Positions 1,262 to 32,000 are shown, numbered from the stretch's first letter. The stretch is 32,000 bases of DNA from Nitrosococcus oceani ATCC 19707 (GCF_000012805.1 NC_007484.1:420001-452000), one strand, 5' to 3'. Numbers and translations: made by a program. The notes: generated from the sequence alone by a model not told the origin.

Positions 1262-2377
1262 TTATGCATCCTCCTGGATAATAGGCGTCCAACCATCACC
1301 CCACACTTGGAAAGCCGCCCAATGGTAGGGCTGCGCGAAAGGCCGTTGGTCAAGTTCCCCTTCGTCTCCAAGCTTATCGGATGCATTTAGAACTGCCTGC
1401 TCCTCCAGCTCCTCACGAATCTGCTTCCAGGTCGCGGTTCGCGTATCCGCTTGCGCTTGTTGCAAGGCCCTATCGGGCGGGTGCGCTTGGCAGAGCAAGT
1501 GGTAATAAAACCGGCTCATTAAAAACGCTGTGGAGAGATCCGCCACACTCCACAGGGACGCCACCACGGTTGGCACCCCCGCTCCCAAAAGGCCGCCCGG
1601 TAGCCCAACGGCTTCCTCGGCCTGCTCCCTGACCTCGGTGATGCCGGTTTGGCAGGCGCTCAGTGTCACCAGCCGCGCCCCGGTGAAATCGACCTTGCCT
1701 TGATAGAGATGCAACAGGGTCAAATGACCCGGCTCGCCTCCCTCAACCGTGGGCTCCCCCTCGGCCGGATGAAGTTCCAGCGCGGATAACAGGGGGCTAC
1801 CCCAGTGATATCGGCCGTGGCATGAAAAGTGATTGAAGGTAGCTCCAGCCAGATTCTCTGCCAGGGCCGGGAGGGTAGCTTCTTTGCCCCGTAGCCGCGT
1901 GGTCCGCTCAGCGCCGGCATAATGGGCAATGCGGGCCACTTCAAGGGACGTGTATGGGAGCTGAGGATCGTTGCGGGGGTTCTCTAAAGCCACCAGCCTC
2001 CAAGATTGTTCGGACCCCCTCGCGTGTTGGCGATTCTCCGCTAAGAATACCGCACTCGGGGTGACTGAGACGGCCATCCGCTCACTCAAGGTAGTCATTG
2101 CCCCGTTCCCGGCTGGAAAAGGTGCCGCCTCCAAGGGTAGCAGATGGAGTCCGCCATGGGTGACAAGGAGAAGGCGCTTTGCCTCGCCGAGGTGTTCCGC
2201 CACGGGGGCGAGCAACTCTTTACCTACACGCCTCAGTAGATGTTGCATCGCATAACCATGACGCCACACCTCCGGGTCCACTACCCCCGCAAACCAACCG
2301 CCGATGATTTCTCCCGAAGGCTCATCCGTTCTCAAGAGCCACTCCTCCCAGAGCCGCTCTTCGGTCACGCTCTCCAT
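1262..2377 (-). CDS. CHAT (caspase-like protease) domain; C-terminal portion of a TPR-CHAT protein
   Basis: ORF track, 371 aa. His/Cys dyad contexts 'FSCHGRY' and 'LSACQTG' are typical of CHAT/caspase folds. It overlaps the upstream TPR ORF by 13 nt in a different frame. Confidence 0.8.
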   Translation of the reverse strand: MESVTEERLWEEWLLRTDEPSGEIIGGWFAGVVDPEVWRHGYAMQHLLRRVGKELLAPVAEHLGEAKRLLLVTHGGLHLLPLEAAPFPAGNGAMTTLSERMAVSVTPSAVFLAENRQHARGSEQSWRLVALENPRNDPQLPYTSLEVARIAHYAGAERTTRLRGKEATLPALAENLAGATFNHFSCHGRYHWGSPLLSALELHPAEGEPTVEGGEPGHLTLLHLYQGKVDFTGARLVTLSACQTGITEVREQAEEAVGLPGGLLGAGVPTVVASLWSVADLSTAFLMSRFYYHLLCQAHPPDRALQQAQADTRTATWKQIREELEEQAVLNASDKLGDEGELDQRPFAQPYHWAAFQVWGDGWTPIIQEDA

Positions 2378-3687
2378 CCAGACCGCTTCAACGCCCCTTG
2401 CCCCGCCGGCAGCACCAGGGCGAGGGTGCCCGCCTCGGTGACTGCAAATTCCACCAGGGCGGCGTCTTGGCCGGGAAGCACCGCGCGAATGTCATGGAGA
2501 TCCACGGACGCGCGCAGAAAATTCGGCTTTAACACGCGGATTTGTTGCGCTTCCTGCTCCAGACCCTGGCGGGCCTGGCGCGTTTTATCCGCTAGATCGG
2601 CCGGGCGTTCCTCCTCGGGCCGCCGCCATTCCGCTTCTAAATCGCGGACCCGCTGCGCGGCTTGCAAAAAAGCGGCCCTTCTCTGCTCTGGAAGGTCTTC
2701 CAGATCGGCCCGATCCCGGCCTGCCCGGTAACGCAGCTCCCGGGCCCGGCCTTCTTCTAGAATCGCCAGCGCCTTATCAGGTCTGCCCAGTTGCGCCTGG
2801 GCAAACGCGCAGTGGGCATATAACATTTCCGATGTGCCAATCTCCCGTTCCCGAACTTCCGGATCATGTAAGCTAATATCAAACAAGATCCGGGAAGCCG
2901 CAAGCCCTTCCTCACTCGCATCCAGGGCCGCCTGCCACCGGCCTGCCTTAAGTAAAGCTGCGCTTTGACCGAGTCGAACCTGACGCGCCGCTTCAGGATT
3001 CGTATCGGTCGTGTAAATGCGAGCGGCCTCGCCATAGGCTTCAAGGGCCCGCTCCAAGTTCTCCGCCCCCGCGCTCCGAATGCGATCTCGATAGGCGTTG
3101 CCCAGACTATGCTGGGTCATAGCCCAGTCCTCGGGGAAAGCATCGCGGGTGTAGATTGTAAGGGCGGCCTCATAAGCTTCAAGGGCCCGCTCCAGATTCT
3201 CCGCCTGCGCACCCCGGATGCGCTTGCCATAGGCGTTGCCCAGGTTATGCTGGGTCATGGCCCACTGCTCGGGGAAATCGTTTCGGGTCCGGATCTCAAG
3301 GGCGGCCTGATAAGCCTGGATGGCTTTTTCCAGGTTCTCCGCCCCCACGCCCCGAATGCGCTTGCCATAGGCGTTGCCCAGGTTATGCTGGGTCGTGGCC
3401 CACTGCTCGGGGAAATCGTTTCGGGTCCGGATCTCAAGGGCAGCCTGATAAGCCTGGATGGCTTGCTCAAGATTATAGGCCCGGGAGGAGCCCATCGATG
3501 ATGTTGCCAACGCATTGCCTAATTCGCCTTGCAAGGAGGCAACCAACTCAGGCTTCTCGTCCTTGAGCTGCCGCAACACATCTTCGAGCGCCTGGATACG
3601 GGTAAGCTGTAATGGGACGGCTTCTGAAGGCATCGATTGCAAAAACTGCCACGCGCAGGCGGCGCGCAAGCTAAGCGGTGCCAACAA
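2365..3687 (-). CDS. Tetratricopeptide-repeat region; N-terminal portion of the same TPR-CHAT protein
   Basis: ORF track, 440 aa. It has near-identical tandem TPR units ('...AIQAYQAALEIRTRNDFPEQWA.TQHNLGNAYGKRIRG...', about 3 copies plus variants). Its C-terminal 'DAALVEFAVTEAGTLALVLPAGQG' looks like the usual start of a CHAT domain. The frame stays open upstream as far as an in-frame TGA at 3802..3804. Confidence 0.75.
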   Translation of the reverse strand: MLAPLSLRAACAWQFLQSMPSEAVPLQLTRIQALEDVLRQLKDEKPELVASLQGELGNALATSSMGSSRAYNLEQAIQAYQAALEIRTRNDFPEQWATTQHNLGNAYGKRIRGVGAENLEKAIQAYQAALEIRTRNDFPEQWAMTQHNLGNAYGKRIRGAQAENLERALEAYEAALTIYTRDAFPEDWAMTQHSLGNAYRDRIRSAGAENLERALEAYGEAARIYTTDTNPEAARQVRLGQSAALLKAGRWQAALDASEEGLAASRILFDISLHDPEVREREIGTSEMLYAHCAFAQAQLGRPDKALAILEEGRARELRYRAGRDRADLEDLPEQRRAAFLQAAQRVRDLEAEWRRPEEERPADLADKTRQARQGLEQEAQQIRVLKPNFLRASVDLHDIRAVLPGQDAALVEFAVTEAGTLALVLPAGQGALKRSGWRA

Positions 3688-5945: not shown

Positions 5946-6236
5946 ATGATCCGCGCCACGCTGGATCAATACTTGGAAGAAGACAGGGTATCGGCCAAGA
6001 CGCTTCACGATGAAGCTAAGCAGCGCCACGGCGATGACTACCGCACGCCGGGTTATTACTTGCGCCTGTATCGTCACCGTGCCGAACGGACCCAAGCCGA
6101 GCTAGCCGAGAAGACCGGCCTCCGCCAGCACCATCTCTCCGAGATGGAACACCACAAGGGCGTGATCGGCAACGCCAACGCCAACGCGAAGAAACTGGCA
6201 CCGATCCTGGACTGCGATTACCGAAAGCTGCTGTAG
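5946..6236 (+). CDS. XRE-family helix-turn-helix transcriptional regulator
   Basis: The ORF track frame is 5856..6236. I prefer the ATG at 5946 (MIRATLDQYLEE...). The HTH signature is 'RTQAELAEKTGLRQHHLSEMEHHK'. It is divergent from the TPR-CHAT operon. Confidence 0.6.
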   Translation: MIRATLDQYLEEDRVSAKTLHDEAKQRHGDDYRTPGYYLRLYRHRAERTQAELAEKTGLRQHHLSEMEHHKGVIGNANANAKKLAPILDCDYRKLL

Positions 6237-17045: not shown

Positions 17046-17194
17046 CTCCCCGGTTTCCCTCAACTCACTCTGCTTCTTCTTTCCTTAAGGTTGCTTCTGC
17101 CCTGGATAAAAAATCCACAGGTAGATTCCGTATTGTTATTTTCAACGGGCTGTCATCGGTCATGATGACCGATAAGCCGCCGCGATAGGTTCTT

Positions 17195-17292
17195 TCCCCA
17201 GGACGGTTAAAGTTTGCTGGTAAAGAGACGAAGGATATTTAGTGGATGATTTTCCAAACAATGTGCAGGCGCATTTGCCTGGGAATAAATTG
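17195..17292 (+). pseudogene. Deletion remnant of the 72-aa first-cassette ORF that is intact at 28074..28292
   Basis: 17199..17236 aligns with 28070..28107. 17234..17281 aligns with 28131..28179. 17282..17292 aligns with 28292..28302. The two intervening blocks are missing. Residual peptide similarity: VDDFPNNVQAHLPG versus VDNILTNIQANLPE. Confidence 0.45.
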
Positions 17293-17452
17293 TTCGCGCC
17301 GCTGTGCGGCGCGAATCGGGGAGTTGACTACGCCAAACGGTTGCCTGCGCCGCTTCGCGTCGCGAACAACCGTTCGACTGGCAGAACCTCCTGCATCATC
17401 AGATGCCGTGCGCCTATGTATGCAGGAGAACCCGCCTGTCAACTCCCCGATT
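17293..17452 (+). repeat. Cassette 5' leader element, copy 1 (full)
   Basis: Begins at the TT of 'GTTCGCG'. Contains a 10-bp GC hairpin (TTCGCGCCGC-tgt-GCGGCGCGAA) and 15-bp terminal inverted repeats: AATCGGGGAGTTGAC at 17314..17328 and GTCAACTCCCCGATT at 17438..17452. Two internal hairpins are AACGGTTG/CAACCGTT and CTCCTGCAT/ATGCAGGAG. Ends 17 nt before ATG 17470. Confidence 0.9.
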
Positions 17453-17469
17453 AACTGTCAGGAGACACC

Positions 17470-18347: not shown

Positions 18348-18507
18348 TCGCGCGCCGCTGCGCGGCGCGAATCGGGGAGTTGACTACGCCAAACGGTTGC
18401 CTGCGCCGCTACGCGTCGCGAACAACCGTTCGACTGGCAGAACCTCCTGCATAATCAAATGCCGCACATCTATCATCCAGGAGAACCCGCCCGTCAACTC
18501 CCCGATT
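18348..18507 (+). repeat. Cassette 5' leader element, copy 2 (full)
   Basis: Same architecture as copy 1. TIRs at 18370..18384 and 18493..18507. Ends 31 nt before ATG 18539. Confidence 0.9.
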
Positions 18508-18538
18508 ATGTGAAGAAATGGAGTAAACAAGGAATATC

Positions 18539-19914: not shown

Positions 19915-19980
19915 ACATAACAATCAGCTGCACAGGATTCACTCCCTTCGGTCGCTCCCCTGTGAGCTTGGGCGTTCGCG
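19915..19980 (+). other. attC-like recombination site (array A)
   Basis: Left box ACATAAC. Arms AATCAGCTGCACAGG and CCTGTG-AGCTTGG with one extrahelical base. Right box GCG|TTCGCG. Starts 12 nt after the MORN gene stop. Confidence 0.7.
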
Positions 19981-20051
19981 CCGCTGCGCGGCGCGAATCG
20001 GGGAGTTGACTGCGCCAAACGATTGCCTGCGCCGCTACGCGTCGCAAACAA
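19975..20051 (+). repeat. Cassette 5' leader element, copy 3 (5' half only)
   Basis: Matches the other copies from TTCGCGCC through '...gcgtcgcaaacaa'. It then diverges into an attC-like tail. Confidence 0.8.
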
Positions 20052-20638: not shown

Positions 20639-20713
20639 TCGCGCCGCTCGGCCTGCATCATCAGATGCCGCACATCTATTATCCAGGAGAACCCGCACGT
20701 CAACTCCCCGATT
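20639..20713 (+). repeat. Cassette 5' leader element, copy 4 (internally deleted)
   Basis: Retains 'tcgcgccgct', joined to the 3' part '(c)ctgcatcatcagatgccgcacatctattatccaggagaacccgcacGTCAACTCCCCGATT'. The left TIR is missing. Confidence 0.8.
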
Positions 20714-20763
20714 AGTCTGGTAAATACACTTTTCAGCTATAAAAAAATATACTGGAGAATAAT

Positions 20764-21848: not shown

Positions 21849-21889
21849 CGCCTATGTATGCAGGAGAACCCGCCTGTCAGTTCCCCGAT
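21849..21889 (+). repeat. Cassette 5' leader element, copy 5 (3' remnant)
   Basis: 'cgcctatgtatgcaggagaacccgcctgtcagttccccgat' matches the 3' end of copy 1. Confidence 0.75.
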
Positions 21890-22511: not shown

Positions 22512-23507
22512 TCAGACTAGGTTTGGCAGGGCGAAGGAGTCGGAAACCGGTTCAATCTGGAAGATTCGGTTCGGTAGGTGGGTTTTGAACGTCTTTTCCT
22601 CGCCGTCCGCGGAGCGTTCGCGCAGCCGGAAAGTGTTGCAATCCGCGATTAGGTGGGTTCCAAAAGGCGTTTCAATGGCATCCTGCACCCATTTGATCGG
22701 AAAGTACTGGTTGGTTGCCTGAATAGTTTTCCTGGACTTGAAGTTCCGATCGAAAAGGATGACCTGGCCTTTGCGTGAATTGGAGATTATGTAGCCCTTT
22801 GAATGGGGCCGGATATGATGGGGGCCGCTGAGTCCCTCGGCGACCACCTCGGTTTTCAATGTTTCGCGGTCGATGCGCGCGAGTGCGCCCTGGTAAAACA
22901 GCACGGTGATGATCTTCGCGGGATCGTAGGGATCGATGATCGCCGAATTCATATGCGTCGTCTGCAAGCGTCCAGGGTAGCACTTCAGACGGTGATCGAT
23001 CGTTTTGTCGATGACCCGCATGCCGCCGCCGTGCGCATGATCGTATCCGTGCTCAGTGGCCCACCAGGACCACAGGATGTTCCCCTGAAAATCGACTTCC
23101 AGAATTGCATCGACGCCGCTCGAGGTGACCAGCAAACCGTTTTCGGTGCGCCGGATCGAGCGTAGTTGCGAGAACAACGGGCTGCGAATTTCGAGGTCAA
23201 TCTGGCCCTGCTCGTTCAGCCGGACGATGTGCTCGTTACCTGGAGTCCCGTCCTCGGGACAAGGCAGTCCGGTAAGAAAATACAGGCCTTCGCCTTCGAC
23301 GAATTGGCTCCCGAAAGGTTTGTCGCAATAGATTTCACCGATCGAGCGGATTCCACCGAAGCTTCCGTCGTGTTCGAGCAACTGGATCTTTCCGCCCATC
23401 GACCCCTTAAAAACATCGTTGGAGCGGTCCTCCCCGCGGATAATCCGGCTTAGCCTGAATTTTACGTAGTCCCAATTAGTTTGCGGATAAGAAACGACAA
23501 ATTTCAT
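22512..23507 (-). CDS. Hypothetical protein, possibly a beta-propeller/arylsulfotransferase-like fold
   Basis: The ORF track frame is 22512..23552. I prefer the ATG at 23507 (MKFVVSYPQ...). It is a long clean ORF with host-like GC. The family assignment rests on weak recollection only. Confidence 0.55.
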   Translation of the reverse strand: MKFVVSYPQTNWDYVKFRLSRIIRGEDRSNDVFKGSMGGKIQLLEHDGSFGGIRSIGEIYCDKPFGSQFVEGEGLYFLTGLPCPEDGTPGNEHIVRLNEQGQIDLEIRSPLFSQLRSIRRTENGLLVTSSGVDAILEVDFQGNILWSWWATEHGYDHAHGGGMRVIDKTIDHRLKCYPGRLQTTHMNSAIIDPYDPAKIITVLFYQGALARIDRETLKTEVVAEGLSGPHHIRPHSKGYIISNSRKGQVILFDRNFKSRKTIQATNQYFPIKWVQDAIETPFGTHLIADCNTFRLRERSADGEEKTFKTHLPNRIFQIEPVSDSFALPNLV

Positions 23508-24151
23508 TTTCAAGTATATCCTGTGGTGAAGATAGGTGGCTATGATAGCCAAGTAGTTTTTTGTTTAGCGCAAAGCAGCTGCTGGCTTTCAGCGACTCTT
23601 TGGCAGGGTATGCCGCCGCTCCTAGGGGCGAAGGTTTTTGCCATAAATCTTAGTTAATTCTTTGCTAAAATTATTGCATAGCATGCCACCCTCAGAGGGC
23701 TTATCTTTAAATAAGAGCCTCTAATATTCATATATTCGGCTAAATTTGTAGCTTTTCCCCGGCGCGGTTTAATGGGAAGGCGAGCAGAATAGCGGAAATT
23801 TTGGGAGAGGGTGTTCGTTCAGGGAGTGTCAGCGGTATTGTGTCTGCCGGATTTTGTGCTATCCAGCAGGTACTTAAGTATGTAGAAGAGGTTCGGTGGG
23901 GAGAAAGGTTCCCAACCTTCTTTTTCCAAAGATGTTCCCTCTGAAGGGGTAGAAGCCGATGATGTGCGCGGCCAAGATGTTGGGGAACACTGTCTATACT
24001 AAATTTCCTTGGATTGAGGATATGGAACCCATGATAGCAAAGAATGGGGAGCGGGCGACTAACCGTACCCGGCATCCGGCGATTTCCCTAGTAGGGCATG
24101 AAGCTGTTAAGTAAAATCCAAGATAATCTACGAAAATTGGAATGTAAGAGC

Positions 24152-25306
24152 ATGTTACTGGCACATAAGATTGAACTAAGGCCCAAAGCAAGCCAAGCCG
24201 AATATCTGAACAAGTCTTGCGGTTCAAGGCGGCACTGCTATAACCAACTACTGGAGCACTTCTCCAAGCCGGATAATAAGTGGAGCAAGGCGGCGGCCTA
24301 CCAGTACTATATAAAAGTCATCCGTCCTGCGTATCCCTGGTATAACGAAGTTTCCAGTCGCGTGACCCGCAACGCCATTGATGACCTGGATGATGCTTTC
24401 AAGCACTTTTTTCGGCGGGTGAAAAAGGGAGGGAAGCCCGGTTTTCCAAAGTTTAAGAAAAAAGACATCAACGATAGCTTCGCCCTACGTGAGAAAACCA
24501 AGTTTGAGGTCAAGGGCCGCAAGCTGAGGATTGAAAAACTCAAAACACTTATCCCCATGCGCCAGCGGCTGCGCTTCGAGGGAACGCCCAAGCAAGTGGC
24601 GATGAGTAAGCAAGCCGGTAAGTATTTCGCCTCCGTTCTGGTAGATACGACAGACTATAAGGACTATAGCCAAAACCGATCCCCCTCCGTAGGCGTGGAT
24701 TTTGGCGTCAAGTCGCTGGCCGTGACTTCTGACAATGAAGTGATTCCTTCCAACAACAAGTTAAAAAAGAGCCTAAAGAAACTCAAGCATTTAAGTAGAA
24801 GTCTATCCAGAAAGCGCAAAGGCTCCAACCGTCGAGCGATAGCCAAGCAGCGGTTAGCCAAATTGCACTATCGGATAGCTCAACAAAGGAAAGCCGTGCT
24901 CCATGAACTGAGCCATAGTTTAACGGCAAACTATGATCGAATCGCCATAGAAGATCTCAATGTTAAAGGGATGGTTCGGAACCGTACACTAGCCCGGTCC
25001 ATCGCCGATGCGGGCTTCGGGATGCTGCGCCAGTTGATTGAATACAAAGCCTTTCTTCGTGGCTGCACGGTTGAGCTGGTAGATAGGTTCTTCCCCTCTA
25101 GCCGGATGTGTTCAGGCTGTGGACAGCTTCACGACATCACGCTCGCGGATAGAGCATTGGCCTGTGATTGTGGATTAACCATAGACCGCGATCTCAATGC
25201 CGCGATTAATTTAAACCGGTATCGTCGGGACACGCTCAAGCCAGACGTAAAACGCACGCAAGAGCCAAGTAAGACCGCGCTAGCGGCATCGGTGTGGACG
25301 GTGTGA
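24152..25306 (+). CDS. tnpB: IS605 OrfB/IS1341-type TnpB (solo, no adjacent tnpA)
   Basis: The ORF track frame is 24098..25306. The likely start is ATG 24152 (MLLAHKIELRPKASQAEYL...). Zinc finger: 'CSGCGQLHDITLADRALACDCGLTIDRDLNAAINL'. Confidence 0.85.
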   Translation: MLLAHKIELRPKASQAEYLNKSCGSRRHCYNQLLEHFSKPDNKWSKAAAYQYYIKVIRPAYPWYNEVSSRVTRNAIDDLDDAFKHFFRRVKKGGKPGFPKFKKKDINDSFALREKTKFEVKGRKLRIEKLKTLIPMRQRLRFEGTPKQVAMSKQAGKYFASVLVDTTDYKDYSQNRSPSVGVDFGVKSLAVTSDNEVIPSNNKLKKSLKKLKHLSRSLSRKRKGSNRRAIAKQRLAKLHYRIAQQRKAVLHELSHSLTANYDRIAIEDLNVKGMVRNRTLARSIADAGFGMLRQLIEYKAFLRGCTVELVDRFFPSSRMCSGCGQLHDITLADRALACDCGLTIDRDLNAAINLNRYRRDTLKPDVKRTQEPSKTALAASVWTV

Positions 25307-26892
25307 ATAAGCCTAGGTTTTCAGAGATCATCCTAGGCTTTTATGAGCGGCGAGTAAGCTTCGCTTTATGGCTACTAGCTGCCGCACTGCTTAGCGCCTG
25401 TGCGATTAATCCGGTAACAGGCGAGCGGGAGCTGTCGCTGGTCTCCGAAACCCAGGAAATTCAGATGGGGGAGGAGAATTATTTGACGATGCGGCAGATG
25501 CAGGGAGGGGATTATACGGCTGACCCCGCACTCACAGCCTATGTGAGCCAGGTGGGTCAGCGTCTGGCGGCCGTGAGTGATCGTTCGCTGCCCTATGAGT
25601 TCTCGGTTATTAACGATTCCACCCCTAATGCGTGGGCCCTGCCGGGTGGTAAAATTGCTCTCAACCGGGGTTTATTGACGGAGCTAAACAATGAAGCTGA
25701 GCTGGCGGCGGTGCTAGGCCATGAGATCGTCCATGCCGCAGCCGGTCATAGCGCCCAAGGCATGGAGCGTGATTTATTATTGAAGGGGGCGGTGTTAGGT
25801 TCAGTGCTGGCAACGGGAGTGAGTGAATACACGCCCCTGGTGTTGGGCGGGGCGCAAGCGGCGGCGCAACTGGTCAATCGGAAATATAGCCGCGATGCGG
25901 AGCGGGAAGCGGATCTTTATGGCATGCGCTATATGTCCCGCGCCGGCTATGATCCTTGGGCAGCGGTGAGCTTGCAGGAAACTTTCGTTCGTCTCTCCGA
26001 GGGACAGCAGGAAAATTGGCTTTCGGGGTTATTGGCAAGCCATCCTCCTTCCCTGGAACGGGTGGAGGCCAATGAGATGACTGCCCGTACTTTGCCTGCC
26101 GGAGGTGAGTTAGGGGCGGAACGCTACCAAGCCAAGCTTGCTCCCCTGAGGCAGGTAGAAACGGCCTATGCTGCTTATGATCAAGGCCGTAAAGCACTTC
26201 AAGAGGGCAACCTGGAGCAGGCGCTGAGTTTAGCGGAGCGGGCCATTACTGAAGAGCCCCGGGAAGCCCTGTTCTATGGCTTGCGCGGTGATGTCTATCT
26301 GGCAAGGAAACGCTATCAGGAAGCTCTGGCCGATTATAATCGGGCTATTAAGCGCAATGATCATTTTTTTTATTTTTATAATCAGCGGGGTTTGGTAAAC
26401 AAAGCATTAGGCCATTCAGAAAAGGCGCGTCAAGATCTGCAGCAGAGTATAGCCCTTTTACCCACGGAAAGCGCTAATAAAGCCTTAGGTGATTTAGCCT
26501 TGACGCAAGGAGATCGGCAAGGCGCCATGACCTACTACCAAAAGGCAGCCGCCTCCCAAACCCCTTTGGGCCTTGAAGCAAGACGCGCCTTGGTTTACCT
26601 GGATTTGCCTAATAATCCCCAAAAATATCTAGCGGCTCAGGTCAAGTTAAATCGGCGTGGCTATCTCGTTGTCCGGGTGACTAATCAGGCACCGCTCCCC
26701 GTCCGCGATATTGGCATTGAAGTGCGTTATCTGGATTCCCAGGGGCACGTCCAGTCCCATAAGCAAGCGTTTCAAGGAATTCTTGCCGCAGGTCAGACCG
26801 CGCGCCTCAAGACGAATCTGGGGCCGCTTTCAGATCCACGTGCGCTCGAACGGATCGAGGCTAAGGTGATCCAGGCCCGAATTGCCAATTAA
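25294..26892 (+). CDS. M48-family zinc metalloprotease lipoprotein with C-terminal TPR domain (BepA-like)
   Basis: ORF track, 532 aa. Lipobox 'LLSAC', zinc motif 'HEIVHAAAGH' and TPR-like repeats after residue ~290. The only in-frame canonical starts (GTG 25294 and 25303) lie inside the last codons of tnpB. Confidence 0.8.
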   Translation: MDGVNKPRFSEIILGFYERRVSFALWLLAAALLSACAINPVTGERELSLVSETQEIQMGEENYLTMRQMQGGDYTADPALTAYVSQVGQRLAAVSDRSLPYEFSVINDSTPNAWALPGGKIALNRGLLTELNNEAELAAVLGHEIVHAAAGHSAQGMERDLLLKGAVLGSVLATGVSEYTPLVLGGAQAAAQLVNRKYSRDAEREADLYGMRYMSRAGYDPWAAVSLQETFVRLSEGQQENWLSGLLASHPPSLERVEANEMTARTLPAGGELGAERYQAKLAPLRQVETAYAAYDQGRKALQEGNLEQALSLAERAITEEPREALFYGLRGDVYLARKRYQEALADYNRAIKRNDHFFYFYNQRGLVNKALGHSEKARQDLQQSIALLPTESANKALGDLALTQGDRQGAMTYYQKAAASQTPLGLEARRALVYLDLPNNPQKYLAAQVKLNRRGYLVVRVTNQAPLPVRDIGIEVRYLDSQGHVQSHKQAFQGILAAGQTARLKTNLGPLSDPRALERIEAKVIQARIAN

Positions 26893-26916
26893 CCATCATA
26901 CTTAATTAAGCGATTA

Positions 26917-27942
26917 ATGATGAAACAAACAACGTATGAATATGCTGCTTCCGCCGGGAGGGCAGAGGCACAGGAGGCGGAGGAGACTTCACCTCTGGAT
27001 CAGGAACTCCTGGCTTTAAAACAACTTGAACAGCGCGTTGGCGCCTTCCACTTTAAGCGGCGCCTGGGCACCGAAGGGAACTATAAAACCCATGCCTCTT
27101 CCCAGGAGCAGGATTCCTTTCATATCGAGAATTGGTATTCCATTCATTTCTTTATTCGCACCACCTTGCGATGTTTGGCGCTCCACGGGCGAGGTAAACG
27201 CAATGCCTTGGCCCTTCGGGTCCGCCATAATGATATTCCTATAAAGGGTCTGTCACCCTCTTTTGAGGGATATACGCTATTACATTTAAGCGATCTCCAC
27301 CTGGACATGAACGGGCAGCTTCCCCAGGTGCTGATTGAGCAAGTTCAGAAGGTAAAATATGATATATGTGTCATCACCGGGGATTTACGGGCGAAGACAT
27401 ACGGGCCTTATCAGCCAGCCATAGAGGCCATGGCGCAGCTGCGGACTCATCTTGAAGCACCAGTCTACGGCGTGCTTGGTAACCATGATAGCCTTCGCAT
27501 GGTCCCTGGGCTGGAAGCCATGGGCGTGCGGATGCTGCTTAACGAAGCGGTACCTATCGAGCGGGATGGTGAGGTCGGTTTCTATCTCGCCGGGGTTGAC
27601 GATCCTCATTATTATCGTGCGGATAATCCGGAAAAAGCCTGCGCGCAAATTCCGGAATCCGTTCCCCGAATTCTGCTAGCCCATTCCCCGGAAATCTATA
27701 AACGTGCCGCCCATTGTGACTTTGATGTCATGTTCTGTGGGCACACCCATGGTGGCCAGATCTGCTTGCCGGGGGGTATCCCCGTCATGGTCAATGCTCG
27801 CTGCCCCCGCCGGATCTGCGCCGGGCCTTGGCGGTACCGCCAGATGCAAGGCTACACATCGGTGGGATCGGGGGTTTCTATTGTCGATGTCCGTTTCAAC
27901 TGCCCACCTGAGATCACCCTGCATCGGCTTCGCTGCACCTGA
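26917..27942 (+). CDS. Calcineurin-like metallophosphoesterase (YkuE-type)
   Basis: ORF track, 341 aa; motifs 'LHLSDLHLD', 'ITGDL', 'GNHD', 'GHTHGGQ'. Confidence 0.85.
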   Translation: MMKQTTYEYAASAGRAEAQEAEETSPLDQELLALKQLEQRVGAFHFKRRLGTEGNYKTHASSQEQDSFHIENWYSIHFFIRTTLRCLALHGRGKRNALALRVRHNDIPIKGLSPSFEGYTLLHLSDLHLDMNGQLPQVLIEQVQKVKYDICVITGDLRAKTYGPYQPAIEAMAQLRTHLEAPVYGVLGNHDSLRMVPGLEAMGVRMLLNEAVPIERDGEVGFYLAGVDDPHYYRADNPEKACAQIPESVPRILLAHSPEIYKRAAHCDFDVMFCGHTHGGQICLPGGIPVMVNARCPRRICAGPWRYRQMQGYTSVGSGVSIVDVRFNCPPEITLHRLRCT

Positions 27943-28073
27943 AAAGCCGTTAAAAATCCCCCTTCGAGTCAAACTCCGAAGTACCTGCTTATCCAATCTC
28001 TGCGTCAAACATGCCTCGTTGCCATTCCCCTTAATTTTCTTTAATCCGCTTCTGTTCTTTTTCTTTTCTCAGG

Positions 28074-28292
28074 ATGATTAAAGTTTGCCAGCAAGAAGAC
28101 GAACTTACTGAAAGCTGGTCTACTGTTTTTGATATCTCTGTGGATAATATTCTAACGAATATACAGGCGAACTTGCCTGAATTTATAGCTAATATCAGGT
28201 TATCAAGGCTAATACATGTTTTGGGTATTATCAGGGCAAAAGTGCCTGAAAAAGCCGGCAATATCAATTTATCAGGGCGCGTATTTACTTGA
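28074..28292 (+). CDS. Hypothetical 72-aa protein, first unit of array B
   Basis: ORF track. A deleted paralogue at 17195..17292 shows conservative amino-acid substitutions. The stop lies inside the following attC-like palindrome. Confidence 0.4.
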   Translation: MIKVCQQEDELTESWSTVFDISVDNILTNIQANLPEFIANIRLSRLIHVLGIIRAKVPEKAGNINLSGRVFT

Positions 28293-28308
28293 GAATAAAT
28301 TGTTCGCG
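28258..28308 (+). other. attC-like palindrome preceding leader copy 6
   Basis: CAATTTAT...ATAAATTG arms followed by G|TTCGCG. The left box is poor. Confidence 0.4.
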
Positions 28309-28461
28309 CCGCTGCGCGGCGCGAATCGGGGAGTTGACTGCGCCAAACGGCCGCCCGCGCCGCTACGCGTTGCGAACAACCGTTCGACTGGCAGAACCCC
28401 CTGCATCATCAGATGCCCCACATCTATTACCCAGGAGAACCCGCCCGTCAACTCCCCGATT
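28303..28461 (+). repeat. Cassette 5' leader element, copy 6 (full)
   Basis: TIRs at 28324..28338 and 28447..28461. Ends 14 nt before ATG 28476. I count about 6 differences from copy 7 by eye. Confidence 0.9.
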
Positions 28462-28475
28462 ATAAGGCTTAAAAA

Positions 28476-29093
28476 ATGCAGTTGCCAGATTTTATAAAAG
28501 ATGTCGTGCTGCTCCTGCTAGGTGGAGTCGGGACTGCTGTGTGGTTTTTCTGGCGTCGCAGGACAGAACAAGCGCCAGTATTTGAAAACATCCACAAAGC
28601 CGAAAAACTTCTCTCGCTTCGAAAAGAACTCGACAACACCAACTACACCTTTGAGGATCTAAAGAGCCTTGAAGATGCGCTGATGGAGCGGGCAGATGTT
28701 GCGAAAGTACTAAGCATCAGCTACGAAGAAGAGGCTAAACAAGTTCGTGAAATTGAGATGAGTACTGCGATGACACAGGCAGAAATGAATATTGTTGCCG
28801 GAAATGCCTATCAAAGCGCCGAGCGTAAACTTGATGCAATACTAGAACAAATCAAGGAGTTCTTGTCTCCTGAAGAATCTGCTCTGTTAGATGAAGCTAA
28901 TCAAGCCTGGCGTACCTACCAGAAAAGCCATGCTGACTTCTCAGCCTCACAATACGAGGGGGGCAGTATTCAGCCGCTCATTTATGCCTCAACAATGGAG
29001 ACGGTCACCGTTGCACGAATAGTTGAATTGGAAGCAGAGCTTAAGTTCATGAAAGACACGCGGGTGCCAAATGCCGAGCAAGACGCCTTATAA
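28476..29093 (+). CDS. Membrane-anchored DUF1311 (LprI-like) domain protein
   Basis: ORF track, 205 aa. N-terminal TM 'VVLLLLGGVGTAVWFFW'. C-terminal 'ANQAWRTYQKSHADFSASQYEGGSIQPLIYASTMETVTVARIVELE' fits the DUF1311 pattern. Confidence 0.7.
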   Translation: MQLPDFIKDVVLLLLGGVGTAVWFFWRRRTEQAPVFENIHKAEKLLSLRKELDNTNYTFEDLKSLEDALMERADVAKVLSISYEEEAKQVREIEMSTAMTQAEMNIVAGNAYQSAERKLDAILEQIKEFLSPEESALLDEANQAWRTYQKSHADFSASQYEGGSIQPLIYASTMETVTVARIVELEAELKFMKDTRVPNAEQDAL

Positions 29094-29162
29094 CAAGTCA
29101 CTCCTGCTGACCGTCTCACTCGCTGGCGCTCGTTCGACGGTAGCAGAGTTCAATCGTTGGGC
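29088..29162 (+). other. attC recombination site
   Basis: The left box TTATAAC contains the stop codon. Arms are CTGCTGACCGTC and GACGGTAGCAG with an extrahelical G. The right box GTTGGGC is a perfect GTTRRRY. Confidence 0.8.
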
Positions 29163-29180
29163 GTCACTGGGAGCTATTCG

Positions 29181-29738
29181 GTGAATGAATCGAAGTCGAC
29201 AACCGAGGTTGCTATTTCCGCATTCATACATGAGCTTTCGCGAATGCCCGCGACTCTTTCGGGAGAAGATTCATCGCTAGATTCAGTTTGGGAAGAGATC
29301 AAAGCTCAGGTTCAGAATGAAGAATCGATCTATTGGGATGCTTATGTCGAAACGATGTCCGTCTTGGTTGAGGCTTATGTCGAAGGTCTGAGCGCCGATG
29401 TGTTGGAAAATCTCCGCGATGAATTGTATCTCGACGATGACGGCGACGTTGGCGAGGGATTGTTCGAGGCGTTACTCGATAGGGCCGGGGAAGAGGACGT
29501 TGCATACGAACCATTCGATTTCGAGTTTTTCTACTACGATGTGATGGGGACCACAACATACGGCCAGGTTCTAAAGCGAACCAGCATTTGGACAGCGCAA
29601 GTTCGCGTTTGGAGTCAAGTCTTACCAAAAGGTGGCGAAATTGGGTTGATATCTACTTCTGCCATTGAGTGTGAAATTTCAGAAGATGTGTTCAATTTTG
29701 CAAAGAGGGCTGCATGGCCCAAGCTTTCTGCGAAGTGA
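29181..29738 (+). CDS. Highly acidic hypothetical protein
   Basis: The ORF track frame is 29157..29738. The TTG at 29157 lies in the attC right box, so GTG 29181 or ATG 29244 is more plausible. Asp/Glu-rich ('LYLDDDGDVGEGLFEALLDRAGEEDVAYEPFDFEFFYYD'). Confidence 0.6.
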   Translation: MNESKSTTEVAISAFIHELSRMPATLSGEDSSLDSVWEEIKAQVQNEESIYWDAYVETMSVLVEAYVEGLSADVLENLRDELYLDDDGDVGEGLFEALLDRAGEEDVAYEPFDFEFFYYDVMGTTTYGQVLKRTSIWTAQVRVWSQVLPKGGEIGLISTSAIECEISEDVFNFAKRAAWPKLSAK

Positions 29739-29739
29739 C

Positions 29740-29836
29740 GCTCAACAAATCGTTGCAGCGGACGTTTGGCCCACCACCTGCTTTGCTGCCGCAAAGCAGG
29801 CGTCGCCTCAAACGCCGCTGAACTCAGGCGTTCGCG
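29740..29836 (+). other. attC recombination site
   Basis: Left box GCTCAAC, arms AAATCGTTGCAGCGGAC and GCCGCTGAACTCAGG, right box GCG|TTCGCG. The overall layout resembles classical attC sites such as aadA-type. Confidence 0.75.
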
Positions 29837-29989
29837 CCGCTGCGCGGCGCGAATCGGGGAGTTAACTGCGCCAAACGGCTGCCCGCGCCGCTACGCGTCG
29901 CGAACAACCGTTCGACTGGCAGAACCTCCTGCATAATCAGATGCCCCACATCTATTATCCAGGAGAACCCGCCCGTCAACTCCCCGATT
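29831..29989 (+). repeat. Cassette 5' leader element, copy 7 (full)
   Basis: TIRs at 29852..29866 (one mismatch, TTAAC) and 29975..29989. Ends 25 nt before ATG 30015. Confidence 0.9.
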
Positions 29990-30014
29990 ATGTCTCTCGG
30001 CTAGTGGAGGTGGG

Positions 30015-31019
30015 ATGACTGGAGTCCGGATTGATGATGCCCTTGCCGATTGGGGAAATTTGGCTAAGGAGAATTGGCAGTCTCTGCTGCTTGGTAATGG
30101 ATTCAGTATTAACGTATGGAGTGGTTTCAACTACGACAGCCTTCTTCAGGTTGCACGACAAGATGACCTTGAGCATCAGCTAAACGAAGAATCCGTGACT
30201 CTATTTGATCATGTCGGAAGTTCAAATTTCGAGGACGTCTTGCGAATACTTTTCCACGCCAGGATGGTTGACGAGCAACTCGGGAGACCTCAAGGGGATG
30301 AAATTGAAGCGATTTATCAGAACACGAAACGTGCTTTGGCAGATGCCGTCAATTACTCTCATGTCGCATACGGTCAGTTCAACGCTGCGGCGATAAACGA
30401 ACAGTTGGGTGGCTACGATGATGTGTTCACGACCAACTACGACTTGATCCCATATTGGTCAATAATGCACGAAGGTGTGGATCGGTTTCGGGACTTTTTT
30501 TGGGGTGCTGACGGGGTTTTTGAGTTATGCAACACTGAGGTATTCCCTAGGCGTACAAAGATTCATTACCTCCATGGGGCCATTCACTTAGTTGAACTTC
30601 CGGATGGTCGCACGAAGAAGCTGGCGACAAATCAAAACGGCAATTTGCTCGAATTGTTTGATCTTAATGCGAGGGATCAATTCCCTCTCTTTATTTCTGA
30701 GGGACATTGGCAACAGAAATTGTCTCGAATATGTAAAAATGACTATCTACGGTTCTGCTTTTCGAATCTGAGCGGTCTAGAAGGTAATGCTGTAATTATT
30801 GGGCACTCCCTGCATCGCGACTACGATCAACATATCATCGATGCGATTTCTCAAAGCTCAGTGGACAGATTGGCTATTGGTGTTTGGCCGCACCAGCGCG
30901 CTGAGGTCATCCTGGATTTCAAGGCTCGAATCATAGAGCAGTTGCATCAGAAGTCATTGGACTTTTTCGATTCTGAATCTCACCCCCTGGGATCTGAGGT
31001 TTTACGTGTCGAGAAATAA
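30015..31019 (+). CDS. SIR2-like (SIR2_2/DUF4917-type) protein, candidate NADase defence effector
   Basis: ORF track, 334 aa. Three motifs in the order typical of SIR2_2-like proteins: 'LLLGNGFS', 'VFTTNYDLI' and 'IHYLHGAIHL'. Confidence 0.65.
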   Translation: MTGVRIDDALADWGNLAKENWQSLLLGNGFSINVWSGFNYDSLLQVARQDDLEHQLNEESVTLFDHVGSSNFEDVLRILFHARMVDEQLGRPQGDEIEAIYQNTKRALADAVNYSHVAYGQFNAAAINEQLGGYDDVFTTNYDLIPYWSIMHEGVDRFRDFFWGADGVFELCNTEVFPRRTKIHYLHGAIHLVELPDGRTKKLATNQNGNLLELFDLNARDQFPLFISEGHWQQKLSRICKNDYLRFCFSNLSGLEGNAVIIGHSLHRDYDQHIIDAISQSSVDRLAIGVWPHQRAEVILDFKARIIEQLHQKSLDFFDSESHPLGSEVLRVEK

Positions 31020-31061
31020 CAAATCGTTGCAGCGGACAAGCCGCTGAATGCGGCGTTAGAG
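31014..31061 (+). other. Short attC recombination site
   Basis: The left box AAATAAC contains the stop codon. Arms are AAATCGTTGCAGCGGAC and GCCGCTGAATGCGG. The right box is GTTAGAG. Confidence 0.7.
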
Positions 31062-31069
31062 AAGTGAAT

Positions 31070-31612
31070 ATGTCACAAGCAAAGAGCTCGTTTGAGCATG
31101 GAATAAAAGACGCAGAAGAGCTGCTTGCTCATTTCGATGCGATCAACTGCAATCCGCCTCCAGCAAATGCTGAGGTGCTAAAGCGAGCTGGTTTGGTCAT
31201 GGCTCTGACAGCGTGGGAAACATACGTTGAAGACCGTATCACAGAGGCCATGGATAAACGTCTCAATGTCGTCTCGGGTAGCTACGTTGGGGAGTTTATA
31301 CAGAAAAAACTCCAACAAGAGCTGAAGCAGTTCCATAACCCAACCTCAGACAAGACCAAAAAGATCTTTCAGGATTATCTTGGATTAGACGTTACTTCAG
31401 CATGGTTTTGGGCGAACGTAACCCCGGAAAAGGCTCGAAAATCCCTAAATCAGTGGATTTCAAAGCGCGGAGACGCCGTTCATCGTTCGAAGCCAATCAA
31501 TAATGGATCGTCGGCCGCCCATTTGATTAAGAAAGATGAGTTGGAGAAGGTAATCAGATTCCTACGGGAGTTGGTTCGTGCAACGGATGATTATCTTGAG
31601 CAAAATCTCTAA
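31070..31612 (+). CDS. HEPN-superfamily protein (RiboL-PSP-HEPN-like), candidate RNase
   Basis: The ORF track frame is 31064..31612. The ATG at 31070 has 'GAGAAG' upstream. The Rx4H motif 'RGDAVHR' lies in the C-terminal third of an all-helical-looking protein. Confidence 0.55.
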   Translation: MSQAKSSFEHGIKDAEELLAHFDAINCNPPPANAEVLKRAGLVMALTAWETYVEDRITEAMDKRLNVVSGSYVGEFIQKKLQQELKQFHNPTSDKTKKIFQDYLGLDVTSAWFWANVTPEKARKSLNQWISKRGDAVHRSKPINNGSSAAHLIKKDELEKVIRFLRELVRATDDYLEQNL

Positions 31613-31684
31613 CAATTCGCATCAGTACGCTGTCTTCGGACGCCAGACGTCCCTGACGGGCCGCCGCTGTGCTCCGCGTTATAT
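31607..31684 (+). other. attC recombination site
   Basis: The left box CTCTAAC contains the stop codon. The right box is GTTATAT at 31678..31684. A GC-rich imperfect palindrome lies between them. Confidence 0.6.
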
Positions 31685-31695
31685 ATGATAGAACC

Positions 31696-32000
31696 ATGAA
31701 AGCTTTGTCTATCGAAGAAATTGAGTCGGCTCGTGCAAAGCTGTTGAGTAACGCAGAGAGTCTATTTGCGGAATCTCAGCTCTTATATAAACACGGTTTC
31801 TTTCCACGAGCCTACTGTTTGGCGCATTTGTGTTGCGAGGAATTAGCAAAAATACCAATGTTGGTTGGTGCGGGCTTGGATCTTGTTAACGGCGAAGAAG
31901 TTGACTGGGAAAAGCTGCATCACCGCTTGAAGAGGCACCAGGATAAGATCAACGCAATGCACGTTCATGATTATTTTCAAAGCGAAATTAGAGCTGATGA
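31696..32000 (+). CDS. AbiV-family (HEPN) abortive-infection protein, 5' part; runs off the window
   Basis: My own translation from ATG 31696: MKALSIEEIESARAKLLSNAESLFAESQLLYKHGFFPRAYCLAHLCCEELAKIPML... This matches the AbiV N-terminal pattern (A..L...g.y..A..L..L..EE..K). Confidence 0.6.
   Translation, partial: MKALSIEEIESARAKLLSNAESLFAESQLLYKHGFFPRAYCLAHLCCEELAKIPMLVGAGLDLVNGEEVDWEKLHHRLKRHQDKINAMHVHDYFQSEIRAD

Follow-up and report, generated by a model that had tools for sequence, protein, structure and literature searches.

The stretch of DNA considered here, 32,000 nucleotides of Nitrosococcus oceani ATCC 19707 (GCF_000012805.1, NC_007484.1:420001-452000; hereafter the window), ends within an integron-type array of gene cassettes, and the last three genes in it follow one another on the forward strand. 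They code for a SIR2-like protein of the DUF4917 family, a HEPN protein of the RiboL-PSP type and an AbiV-family protein, the last of which continues past the end of the window. The window matches part of a 1.3-Mb scaffold of assembly GCA_000155655.1 (DS995301.1) at 100% identity, and in this source scaffold the third gene is complete, with 196 aa and an end at 32286; positions beyond 32,000 are given throughout in such extended coordinates. The three genes are the following:

30015-31019, forward strand: DUF4917 (PDC-S21) SIR2-like gene; ATG start, 334 aa, putative catalytic residues N141 and H187
31070-31612, forward strand: RiboL-PSP-type HEPN gene; 180 aa from the ATG, or 182 aa from a GTG at 31064
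31696-32000 in the window, forward strand: AbiV-family gene; ATG at 31696, 101 codons in the window, the gene running off its end

The DUF4917 and HEPN genes are separated by only 50 nt (31020-31069). A preliminary description of this DNA had proposed three consecutive open reading frames (ORFs), the first with GNGFS, TTNYD and LHG motifs and the second with an RGDAVH motif; the frames and the motifs are all present. The HEPN gene was likewise correctly recognized, and the length of 181 aa assigned to it then had counted the stop codon.

Families and folds of the three proteins

Profile searches place each of the three proteins in the family earlier suggested for it, namely DUF4917 with a SIR2 fold, HEPN_RiboL-PSP and AbiV. 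In the first, the Pfam DUF4917 model (PF16263) matches residues 24-322 (4.6e-46, 158.1 bits against a cut-off of 28), and the PADLOC model PDC-S21 (PDLC04961) matches the protein over its full length (2.4e-99, 330.8 bits; residues 8-330 against 11-332 of the 336 model positions). The Pfam SIR2_2 match is sub-threshold (0.11); one homolog (P0100) also carries a match to this model. The motifs GNGFS (residues 27-31), TTNYD (139-143) and LHG (186-188) are invariant or nearly so across 24 homologs, with N141 and H187 invariant in 24 sequences. An AlphaFold model of the protein, obtained with the 24 homologs, has a mean predicted local distance difference test score (pLDDT) of 84.5 and a predicted template modeling (pTM) score of 0.84. 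When it is compared with the PDB using Foldseek, 17 of the 17 matches at E <= 1e-3 are defense-type SIR2 proteins, the best being the SIR2 subunit of SIR2-HerA (E 8.5e-10, TM score 0.50-0.56), followed by KomC and ThsA; SirTM, DSR2 and the classical sirtuins rank below these (E 1e-3 to 2e-2). In a profile-to-PDB alignment, TTNYD and LHG coincide with their counterparts in 8w9l, a SIR2-like protein of solved structure. There are only three cysteines in the DUF4917 protein, with no CxxC pair among them, and hence it lacks the zinc module of the sirtuin deacetylases. The SIR2-like identity first read from the motifs is thus borne out by family profiles and predicted fold alike.

The preliminary description had set apart the C-terminal ~130 aa as a candidate sensor region. 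This region instead belongs to the SIR2 domain, because β-α-β Rossmann units run on to residue ~319 in the model and the structural alignment with the SIR2 subunit of SIR2-HerA extends along the entire chain; the Pfam match, too, reaches residue 322. The model therefore predicts one complete SIR2-fold domain without a fused sensor. The defense SIR2 NADases of SIR2-HerA, Thoeris (ThsA), DSR2 and KomC share with this protein the Rossmann fold, the catalytic asparagine of TTNYD and histidine of LHG, and the absence of a zinc module. However, each of the known systems has a sensor or partner—the HerA ATPase, a SLOG domain with the TIR protein ThsB, the large C-terminal sensor of DSR2, or KomAB—whereas the DUF4917 protein is a bare SIR2 domain without a conserved neighbor, and its resemblance to them amounts to 12-17% identity and TM scores of 0.4-0.56 only. 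As all 334 aa are taken up by the SIR2 domain and no neighbor is conserved in 79 loci, it is not a member of Thoeris, SIR2-HerA or DSR, though it may function as their effector module does.

The PADLOC label PDC-S21 denotes a single-gene candidate (Payne et al., 10.1101/2024.01.29.577857) that the protein matches from end to end. PDC systems are candidate genes defined by their embedding in BREX, DISARM and type I restriction-modification (R-M) loci (10.1101/2024.01.29.577857), whereas the gene here is an integron cassette with no R-M locus. Distant DUF4917 homologs (26-34% identity) from diverse phyla, e.g., Bacteroidota and Spirochaetota, do occur between HsdM, HsdS and HsdR or beside type III-like Res and Eco57I-like enzymes (loci L044, L059, L064, L065, L070 and L074, around position 6000 in each), a context that fits the PADLOC definition of PDC candidates. 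No mention of PDC-S21 was found in the literature searched.

The second protein is matched at residues 14-178 by Pfam HEPN_RiboL-PSP (PF18735; 4.1e-30, 105.6 bits against a cut-off of 28.4). Its RGDAVH motif (residues 133-138) has the Rx4H form. Across 18 homologs neither R133 nor H138 varies, nor does the longer string KRGDAVHRSK; the earlier assignment to HEPN by this motif therefore holds. The AlphaFold model is an all-α bundle (pLDDT 77.9), and a PDB sequence search with the HEPN profile returns no solved relative. The family is large, a search at E <= 1e-3 giving 1588 cluster representatives, and the DNA differences within it lie chiefly at third codon positions. The small α-helical build and Rx4-6H motif are common to the toxin of the HEPN-MNT toxin-antitoxin system HepT-MntA, and HepT recurs as a non-significant fold match. 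However, the protein here belongs to a different Pfam family (RiboL-PSP), and no MNT or other antitoxin gene adjoins its gene in any of six contexts, the window and five others. In the literature searched, RiboL-PSP has one unrelated mention only.

The third protein meets the family models for AbiV, as had been surmised: the first 101 aa match Pfam HEPN_AbiV (PF18728; 3.7e-24, 86.1 bits against a cut-off of 27.1), and the full 196 aa match NCBIfam TIGR04498 (AbiV_defense; 5e-38, 130.6 bits against a cut-off of 27). The PADLOC AbiV model matches the full-length protein only weakly (4.7e-07). AbiV of Lactococcus is a HEPN protein that is triggered by an early phage protein and shuts down translation. 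The N. oceani protein meets the same family model as Lactococcus lactis AbiV and is of similar size, but it differs in its gammaproteobacterial host, in the setting of its gene in a cassette array and in the weak PADLOC match.

Cassette boundaries and the independence of the genes

The preliminary description held that these genes are cassettes bounded by attC sites, and inverted core sites, complementarity between R'' and cassette 5' ends, and junctions that recur elsewhere all support this. The boundaries, all on the forward strand, are:

29740-29836, forward strand: attC of the preceding cassette (193-aa ORF); R'' GCTCAAC 29740-29746, R' GTTCGCG 29830-29836, crossover between G29830 and T29831
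29988-31055, forward strand: DUF4917 cassette proper, 1068 bp; Shine-Dalgarno sequence GGAGG at 30007-30011, 5' untranslated region (UTR) of 27 nt
31014-31061, forward strand: attC of the DUF4917 cassette, 48 bp; R'' overlaps the stop codon, crossover between G31055 and T31056
31056-31678, forward strand: HEPN cassette, 623 bp; 5' UTR of 14 nt
31607-31684, forward strand: attC of the HEPN cassette, 78 bp; R'' CTCTAAC 31607-31613, R' GTTATAT 31678-31684

The 48-bp site consists of R'' AAATAAC, a spacer AAATCG, L'' TTGCAGCGG, a loop ACAAG, L' CCGCTGAA, a spacer TGCGGC and R' GTTAGAG, and its L''/L' stem has one bulged base and a 5-nt loop. Its last 6 nt (TTAGAG) are part of the HEPN cassette; together with the preceding G, this cassette 5' end is complementary at seven of seven positions to the cassette's own R'' CTCTAAC, as is expected of a circularizing cassette. 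Likewise, once an inserted unit described below is set aside, the R'' region of the DUF4917 cassette (GAGAAATAAC) finds its complement, with 2 mismatches of 11, in the cassette 5' end, TTATGTCTCT. The attC cores of the two cassettes depart from the consensus (R'' RYYYAAC, R' GTTRRRY) at one to three positions, and AACAAATCGTTGCAGCGGAC is common to the attC at 29740 and that at 31018. As for folding, the bottom strand of the preceding site (29738-29832) folds at -32 kcal/mol (z = -5.7 against shuffles), that of the 48-bp site only weakly better than shuffles (z -1.9) and the attC of the HEPN cassette not above them (z -0.2).

Because the folds of the two short sites do not stand clearly above shuffled sequences, the decisive evidence for the cassettes is comparative. 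The 5' boundary of the HEPN cassette, CGTTAGAGA, with its G/TTAGAGA junction (a slash marks the crossover point here and below), is the same in four arrays that are otherwise unrelated and differ in the DNA upstream of it, including those of Pseudomonas neustonica and Pseudomonas sp. SG20056 and a metagenomic array, and the R'' end of its attC can be aligned with that of the same cassette in P. neustonica. Among the closest DUF4917 genes from other genera, about 10 of 17 are directly followed by a TAAC...GTTA attC, and in two loci (L024 and L010) an integrase gene, intI, lies within a few hundred bases of the DUF4917 gene.

Elsewhere the two families do not keep company. A search with phmmer against all ORFs of 79 DUF4917 loci of other species finds a homolog of the window's HEPN or AbiV protein within 6 kb in none of them, and neighbor clustering among the close DUF4917 relatives (53-61% identity) yields no conserved neighbor; Pfam families assigned to 108 neighboring ORFs recur no more than three times each, the commonest being the integrase family. 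Conversely, HEPN homologs with 73-96% identity occur in five different neighborhoods, with DUF4917 in none. With an attC for each, these distributions indicate that the DUF4917 and HEPN genes are independent single-gene cassettes, each mobile alone, and that their adjacency is a matter of cassette shuffling in one lineage. The two-cassette functional pair that had been offered as an option at the outset accordingly falls away.

The HEPN cassette of P. neustonica (L089/L090, 4655-6070) sits beside a truncated intI and is followed by a gene for a 471-aa protein with ApeA_NTD1 and HEPN_Apea domains, and a cassette with an Mrr-like nuclease gene lies two cassettes upstream of it, giving another run of defense-type cassettes.

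A repeat unit inserted at the crossover point

Between the preceding attC and the DUF4917 cassette lies an ORF-less repeat unit, which we call the leader. It and the features that go with it are:

29831-29987, forward strand: leader, a repeat unit of ~157 nt; junctions G/TTCGCGCC upstream and ...CTCCCCGA/TT downstream
17292-17453, 18351-18511, 19971-20051, 20652-20714, 21861-21889, 28302-28463 and 29826-30014, forward strand: leader copies in the window
32293-32399, 32883-33046 and 36957-37078 (extended coordinates), forward strand: leader copies beyond the window
29941-30018, forward strand: upstream ORF (uORF) MPHIYYPGEPARQLPDYVSRLVEVG, 25 codons; starts inside the leader and overlaps the DUF4917 start as ATGA

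The array holds at least 10 full or partial copies of the leader, 88-96% identical to one another (the long copies 91-96%), among them a pair of ~165 nt at 28302-28463 and 29830-29991 with 96% identity. All copies have a single orientation and stand at the G/TT crossover of attC or attI-like sites, starting with the TT of the preceding R' or of an attI-like GAATAAATTG/TT and ending in ...CTCCCCGA. In seven of eight copies, the ten bases that directly follow the unit match, as a reverse complement, the R'' region of the next attC downstream, apart from 0-2 mismatches of 11; in the DUF4917 case these are G+TTATGTCTCT and CGAGAAATAAC. Since the bases after the unit thus pair with the next R'', the true 5' end of the cassette lies behind the leader. 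These junctions show the leader to be a unit of its own, inserted at the crossover point of the integron, and not a part of the DUF4917 cassette.

The ends of the leader, if joined, would give a perfect palindrome of 23 bp; its ATTCGCG end is complementary at all seven positions to an internal CGCGAAT, and its RNA folds with z = -3.45. Searched against Rfam, the whole window at the gathering threshold and 29700-32000 at E <= 5 give chance-level matches only. Two metagenome scans for the leader outside this lineage yielded zero matches and one unrelated palindrome (L100), respectively. As a promoter the unit finds no support, with no sigma-70-like site on the forward strand in 27900-32000. Nor is it a canonical attC: its cores are ATT/AAT, its strong palindrome has the polarity 5'-GTT...AAC-3', and an attC-like reading is available in the outer stem only.

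Two affinities come into consideration: the leader could be a mini-cassette that lacks an ORF and has an ATT/AAT core, or it could be a transposase-less, attC-targeting relative of the IS1111 elements, comparable to a miniature inverted-repeat transposable element. Members of the IS1111 family such as ISKpn4 and ISPst6 target one end of attC sites (PMC11187229). With such elements and with ORF-less integron cassettes the leader shares a fixed position at the attC end, a single orientation and palindromic joined ends; it differs from IS1111 elements in its length of ~157 nt, in lacking a transposase, in lying exactly at the IntI crossover (G/TT) and in having an ATT/AAT core in place of GTT/AAC.

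The uORF that starts in the leader was at first thought to be part of what drives the DUF4917 gene. The leader, the uORF and the ATGA overlap are all there, but the drive needs revision: the leader is a separate inserted unit, and the DUF4917 cassette that starts behind it has a GGAGG of its own. The core of the uORF peptide is common to five leader copies, with frame or start differing in variant copies. As a conserved coding leader it finds no support: no Shine-Dalgarno sequence precedes its ATG, which is paired in a predicted hairpin stem, and the variant copies do not keep its frame. For these reasons, and because the DUF4917 gene has its own GGAGG, we read the overlap as probably incidental. 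In four leader copies the uORF stops at most 5 nt away from the start codon that follows, and translational coupling through the uORF is possible.

At the 3' side of the trio, no attC follows the stop codon of the AbiV gene, and a 5'-truncated repeat unit lies directly 3' of it (32287-32394, extended). Since the attC is missing and the truncated unit adjoins the gene, a deletion has apparently taken away the AbiV attC and joined the AbiV gene to the cassette that follows. The ORF of that cassette probably starts near 32411, and not at the called 32359, with its R'' at about 32760.

The DNA 5' of two of the leader copies is homologous (17190-17291 and 28060-28301), following the pattern TTCTTT..CAGGA.G.TTAAAGTTTGC...GAATAAATTG/TT. 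The second stretch carries an insert of ~100 nt, and an integrase gene stands beside neither copy. The two look like a duplicated, attI-like array start.

Array context, expression and function

No integrase gene was found in 41 kb, either by tblastn with the IntI proteins of L024, L010 and L089 or as a Phage_integrase match among the large ORFs; at least locally, the array is thus a cluster of attC sites without an integrase. It runs ~7 kb past the window, where it includes BrnT, HicA, VapBC and HigB toxin-antitoxin cassettes. Midway, between ParDE and unknown cassettes on one side and the second array start on the other, lie genes for a TnpB protein (IS605 OrfB/Cas12f-like), an M48 peptidase-TPR protein and a metallophosphoesterase (23950-27942), which suggests a rearrangement or insertion that split the array. 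Flanked by the ParDE cassette and the TnpB element, there is also an ORF on the reverse strand (22512-23552, 331-346 aa) that holds an attC-like 20-mer at 23410-23429; considered as a candidate intI, it was set aside, having no Pfam or PADLOC match. Of the two cassettes that precede the DUF4917 gene, one (28476-29093) codes for a protein of 205 aa that has a hydrophobic segment at its N terminus and an LprI domain (lysozyme inhibitor; 3.4e-18), and the other (29157-29738) for the acidic 193-aa protein, which has no family match. Outside the array, on the reverse strand at 1262-3687, a gene for a 371-aa CHAT-domain protein overlaps by 13 nt the upstream gene of a 440-aa TPR protein, a pair reminiscent of the caspase-like protease and sensor pairing of some conflict systems. 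In the literature searched, no paper connects Nitrosococcus oceani with a study of integrons.

With 5' UTRs of just 27 nt and 14 nt, the DUF4917 and HEPN cassettes have no space for a promoter, so that transcription would have to read through from upstream, and the two genes are likely co-transcribed. Taking gene content and boundaries together, we consider it reasonably probable that the locus consists of three independent, promoterless single-gene cassettes, each a stand-alone effector of abortive-infection type: a SIR2 NADase, a HEPN RNase and an AbiV protein. The enzymatic activities, the triggering by phage and the defensive role are what we infer for them. The DUF4917 protein would oligomerize, with an infection cue acting on it directly, and hydrolyze NAD+ by means of N141 and H187, starving the infected cell and with it the phage. 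The HEPN protein would dimerize to form a composite, metal-independent RNase site from R133 and H138 of the Rx4H motif and would cut cellular or phage RNA so that growth stops. The AbiV-family protein would act as does Lactococcus AbiV, being triggered by an early phage protein and shutting down translation. The label "defense-type" that the genes had been given is reasonable in view of the PDC-S21 match, the AbiV model and the distant DUF4917 homologs in R-M loci.

Such an assembly has precedents. Integrons, both chromosomal and mobile, are stores of small, mostly single-gene abortive-infection systems (10.1101/2024.07.02.601686; 10.1101/2024.07.02.601719; 10.64898/2026.03.17.712381), and a cassette protein consisting of HEPN only, Esos, is reported in this work to be protective; the HEPN protein here is likened to it by description, as another HEPN-only cassette protein. 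AbiV ranks among the commonest defense systems of chromosomal integrons, and mobile integrons carry it as the cassette brcN (10.1101/2024.07.02.601686 and 10.1101/2024.07.02.601719, the preprints of Darracq et al. and Kieffer et al., Science 2025). The anti-phage cassettes of these last two studies are, as here, small, streamlined, attC-bounded single genes, AbiV included; they differ in coming from Vibrio and mobile integrons, with SIR2 and DUF4917 unmentioned, while the array here is without an integrase. Integron-borne abortive-infection genes are thus already known, and the locus is not a new kind of system.

Several observations weigh against a defensive role for the cassettes. The sole characterized DUF4917 protein, SliP of Campylobacter jejuni, is reported to be a flagellum-secreted histone/protein deacetylase that acts in host cells, and not an NADase (PMC10421069); it shares the Pfam family, with a SIR2-like fold modeled on ThsA, the likeness being one of family description and not of sequence alignment. 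The HEPN protein matches no PADLOC or NCBIfam model, and its predicted structure has no significant match, HepT-type HEPN toxins appearing at E 0.4-3 with target TM scores of 0.42-0.47; as the model has no significant counterpart, profile and motif are what define its HEPN membership. The family is also 70-97% identical across Nitrosococcus, Pseudomonas, Limnohabitans and Massilia, with a mean column identity of 80% (homologs P0121-P0240), an unusual degree of conservation for an immune gene. A HEPN RNase without an antitoxin and an NADase without a sensor both need some restraint. Further, with neither an integrase nor a sigma-70-like promoter on the forward strand found, the cassettes may be silent. 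Finally, the order of the trio gives no evolutionary information, because its other copies, in a second assembly and in several read-set assemblies that end at the flanking repeats, are all 100% identical DNA from one lineage.

Some of these facts would be accommodated if the genes were not immune at all, the DUF4917 protein being a protein deacylase or ADP-ribosyltransferase like SliP or SirTM, and the HEPN protein an RNase of stress response, RNA turnover or addiction that stabilizes the array, as would the toxin-antitoxin cassettes farther downstream. The sirtuin deacetylase activity reported for SliP (PMC10421069), the presence of SirTM and classical sirtuins among the fold matches, the high conservation of the HEPN family together with its lack of a PADLOC model, and the wealth of toxin-antitoxin cassettes in the array (BrnT, HicA, VapBC, HigB and ParDE) can be cited in favor of this. 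We nevertheless judge it unlikely: the best structural matches of the DUF4917 protein are all defense NADases, with the classical sirtuins far lower at E > 1e-3; the protein lacks zinc-binding cysteines; the wider family, which is the basis of PDC-S21, is embedded in R-M loci; and an antitoxin gene stands beside the HEPN gene in no context seen.

The chances seem slim, too, that the array, which lacks an integrase, is decaying and stores the cassettes as unexpressed cargo without current function in this host, whatever they could do biochemically. Consistent with decay are the failure to find IntI within 41 kb, the absence of a promoter-like site on the forward strand in 27900-32000, the interruption of the array by the TnpB element and apparently ordinary non-cassette genes, and the loss of the AbiV attC. 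Against it, all three ORFs are intact with their catalytic residues conserved, the DUF4917 gene has a good Shine-Dalgarno sequence, and the scan for consensus promoters is crude; moreover, silent cassettes are normal in chromosomal integrons and so compatible with the genes being effectors of abortive infection. As for a two-gene system in which the DUF4917 and HEPN proteins, brought together by shuffling and co-transcribed across the 48-bp attC, would sense for or restrain one another, the genes' close spacing on one strand, the dependence of the HEPN gene, with its 14-nt 5' UTR, on co-transcription with the gene upstream and the same arrangement in two assemblies and several read-set assemblies are outweighed by the identity of all these copies as one lineage, the attC crossover point between the genes, the five HEPN contexts without DUF4917 and the 79 DUF4917 loci without HEPN, so that this very improbable reading is already largely refuted by the missing co-occurrence.

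Beyond the interpretation of the trio as three stand-alone effectors, a more far-reaching one takes its novelties together, and we put it forward tentatively, as possible but doubtful. The DUF4917 protein would be a self-sufficient SIR2 immune protein, a bare NADase domain of 334 aa that itself senses infection, and so the smallest SIR2 defense system; the highly conserved HEPN protein of 180 aa would be a second, unrecognized single-gene defense system, spread widely among Proteobacteria by integrons; and the leader would be a new ORF-less mobile unit, which uses or mimics the integron crossover with its ATT/AAT core and has multiplied between cassettes.

The locus adds two candidate anti-phage genes to those stored in integrons, a sensor-less SIR2 protein (PDC-S21) that recurs as a cassette and a very widespread, highly conserved HEPN protein without an antitoxin, and if either protects against phage, it raises the question of how a bare NADase or RNase domain stays silent until infection. 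For annotation, the appropriate names are DUF4917/SIR2-like (PDC-S21 candidate), HEPN (RiboL-PSP family) and AbiV family, the locus being otherwise ordinary. The less expected feature is the insertion of the leader at the attC crossover, which may matter more to integron biology than the three genes themselves.

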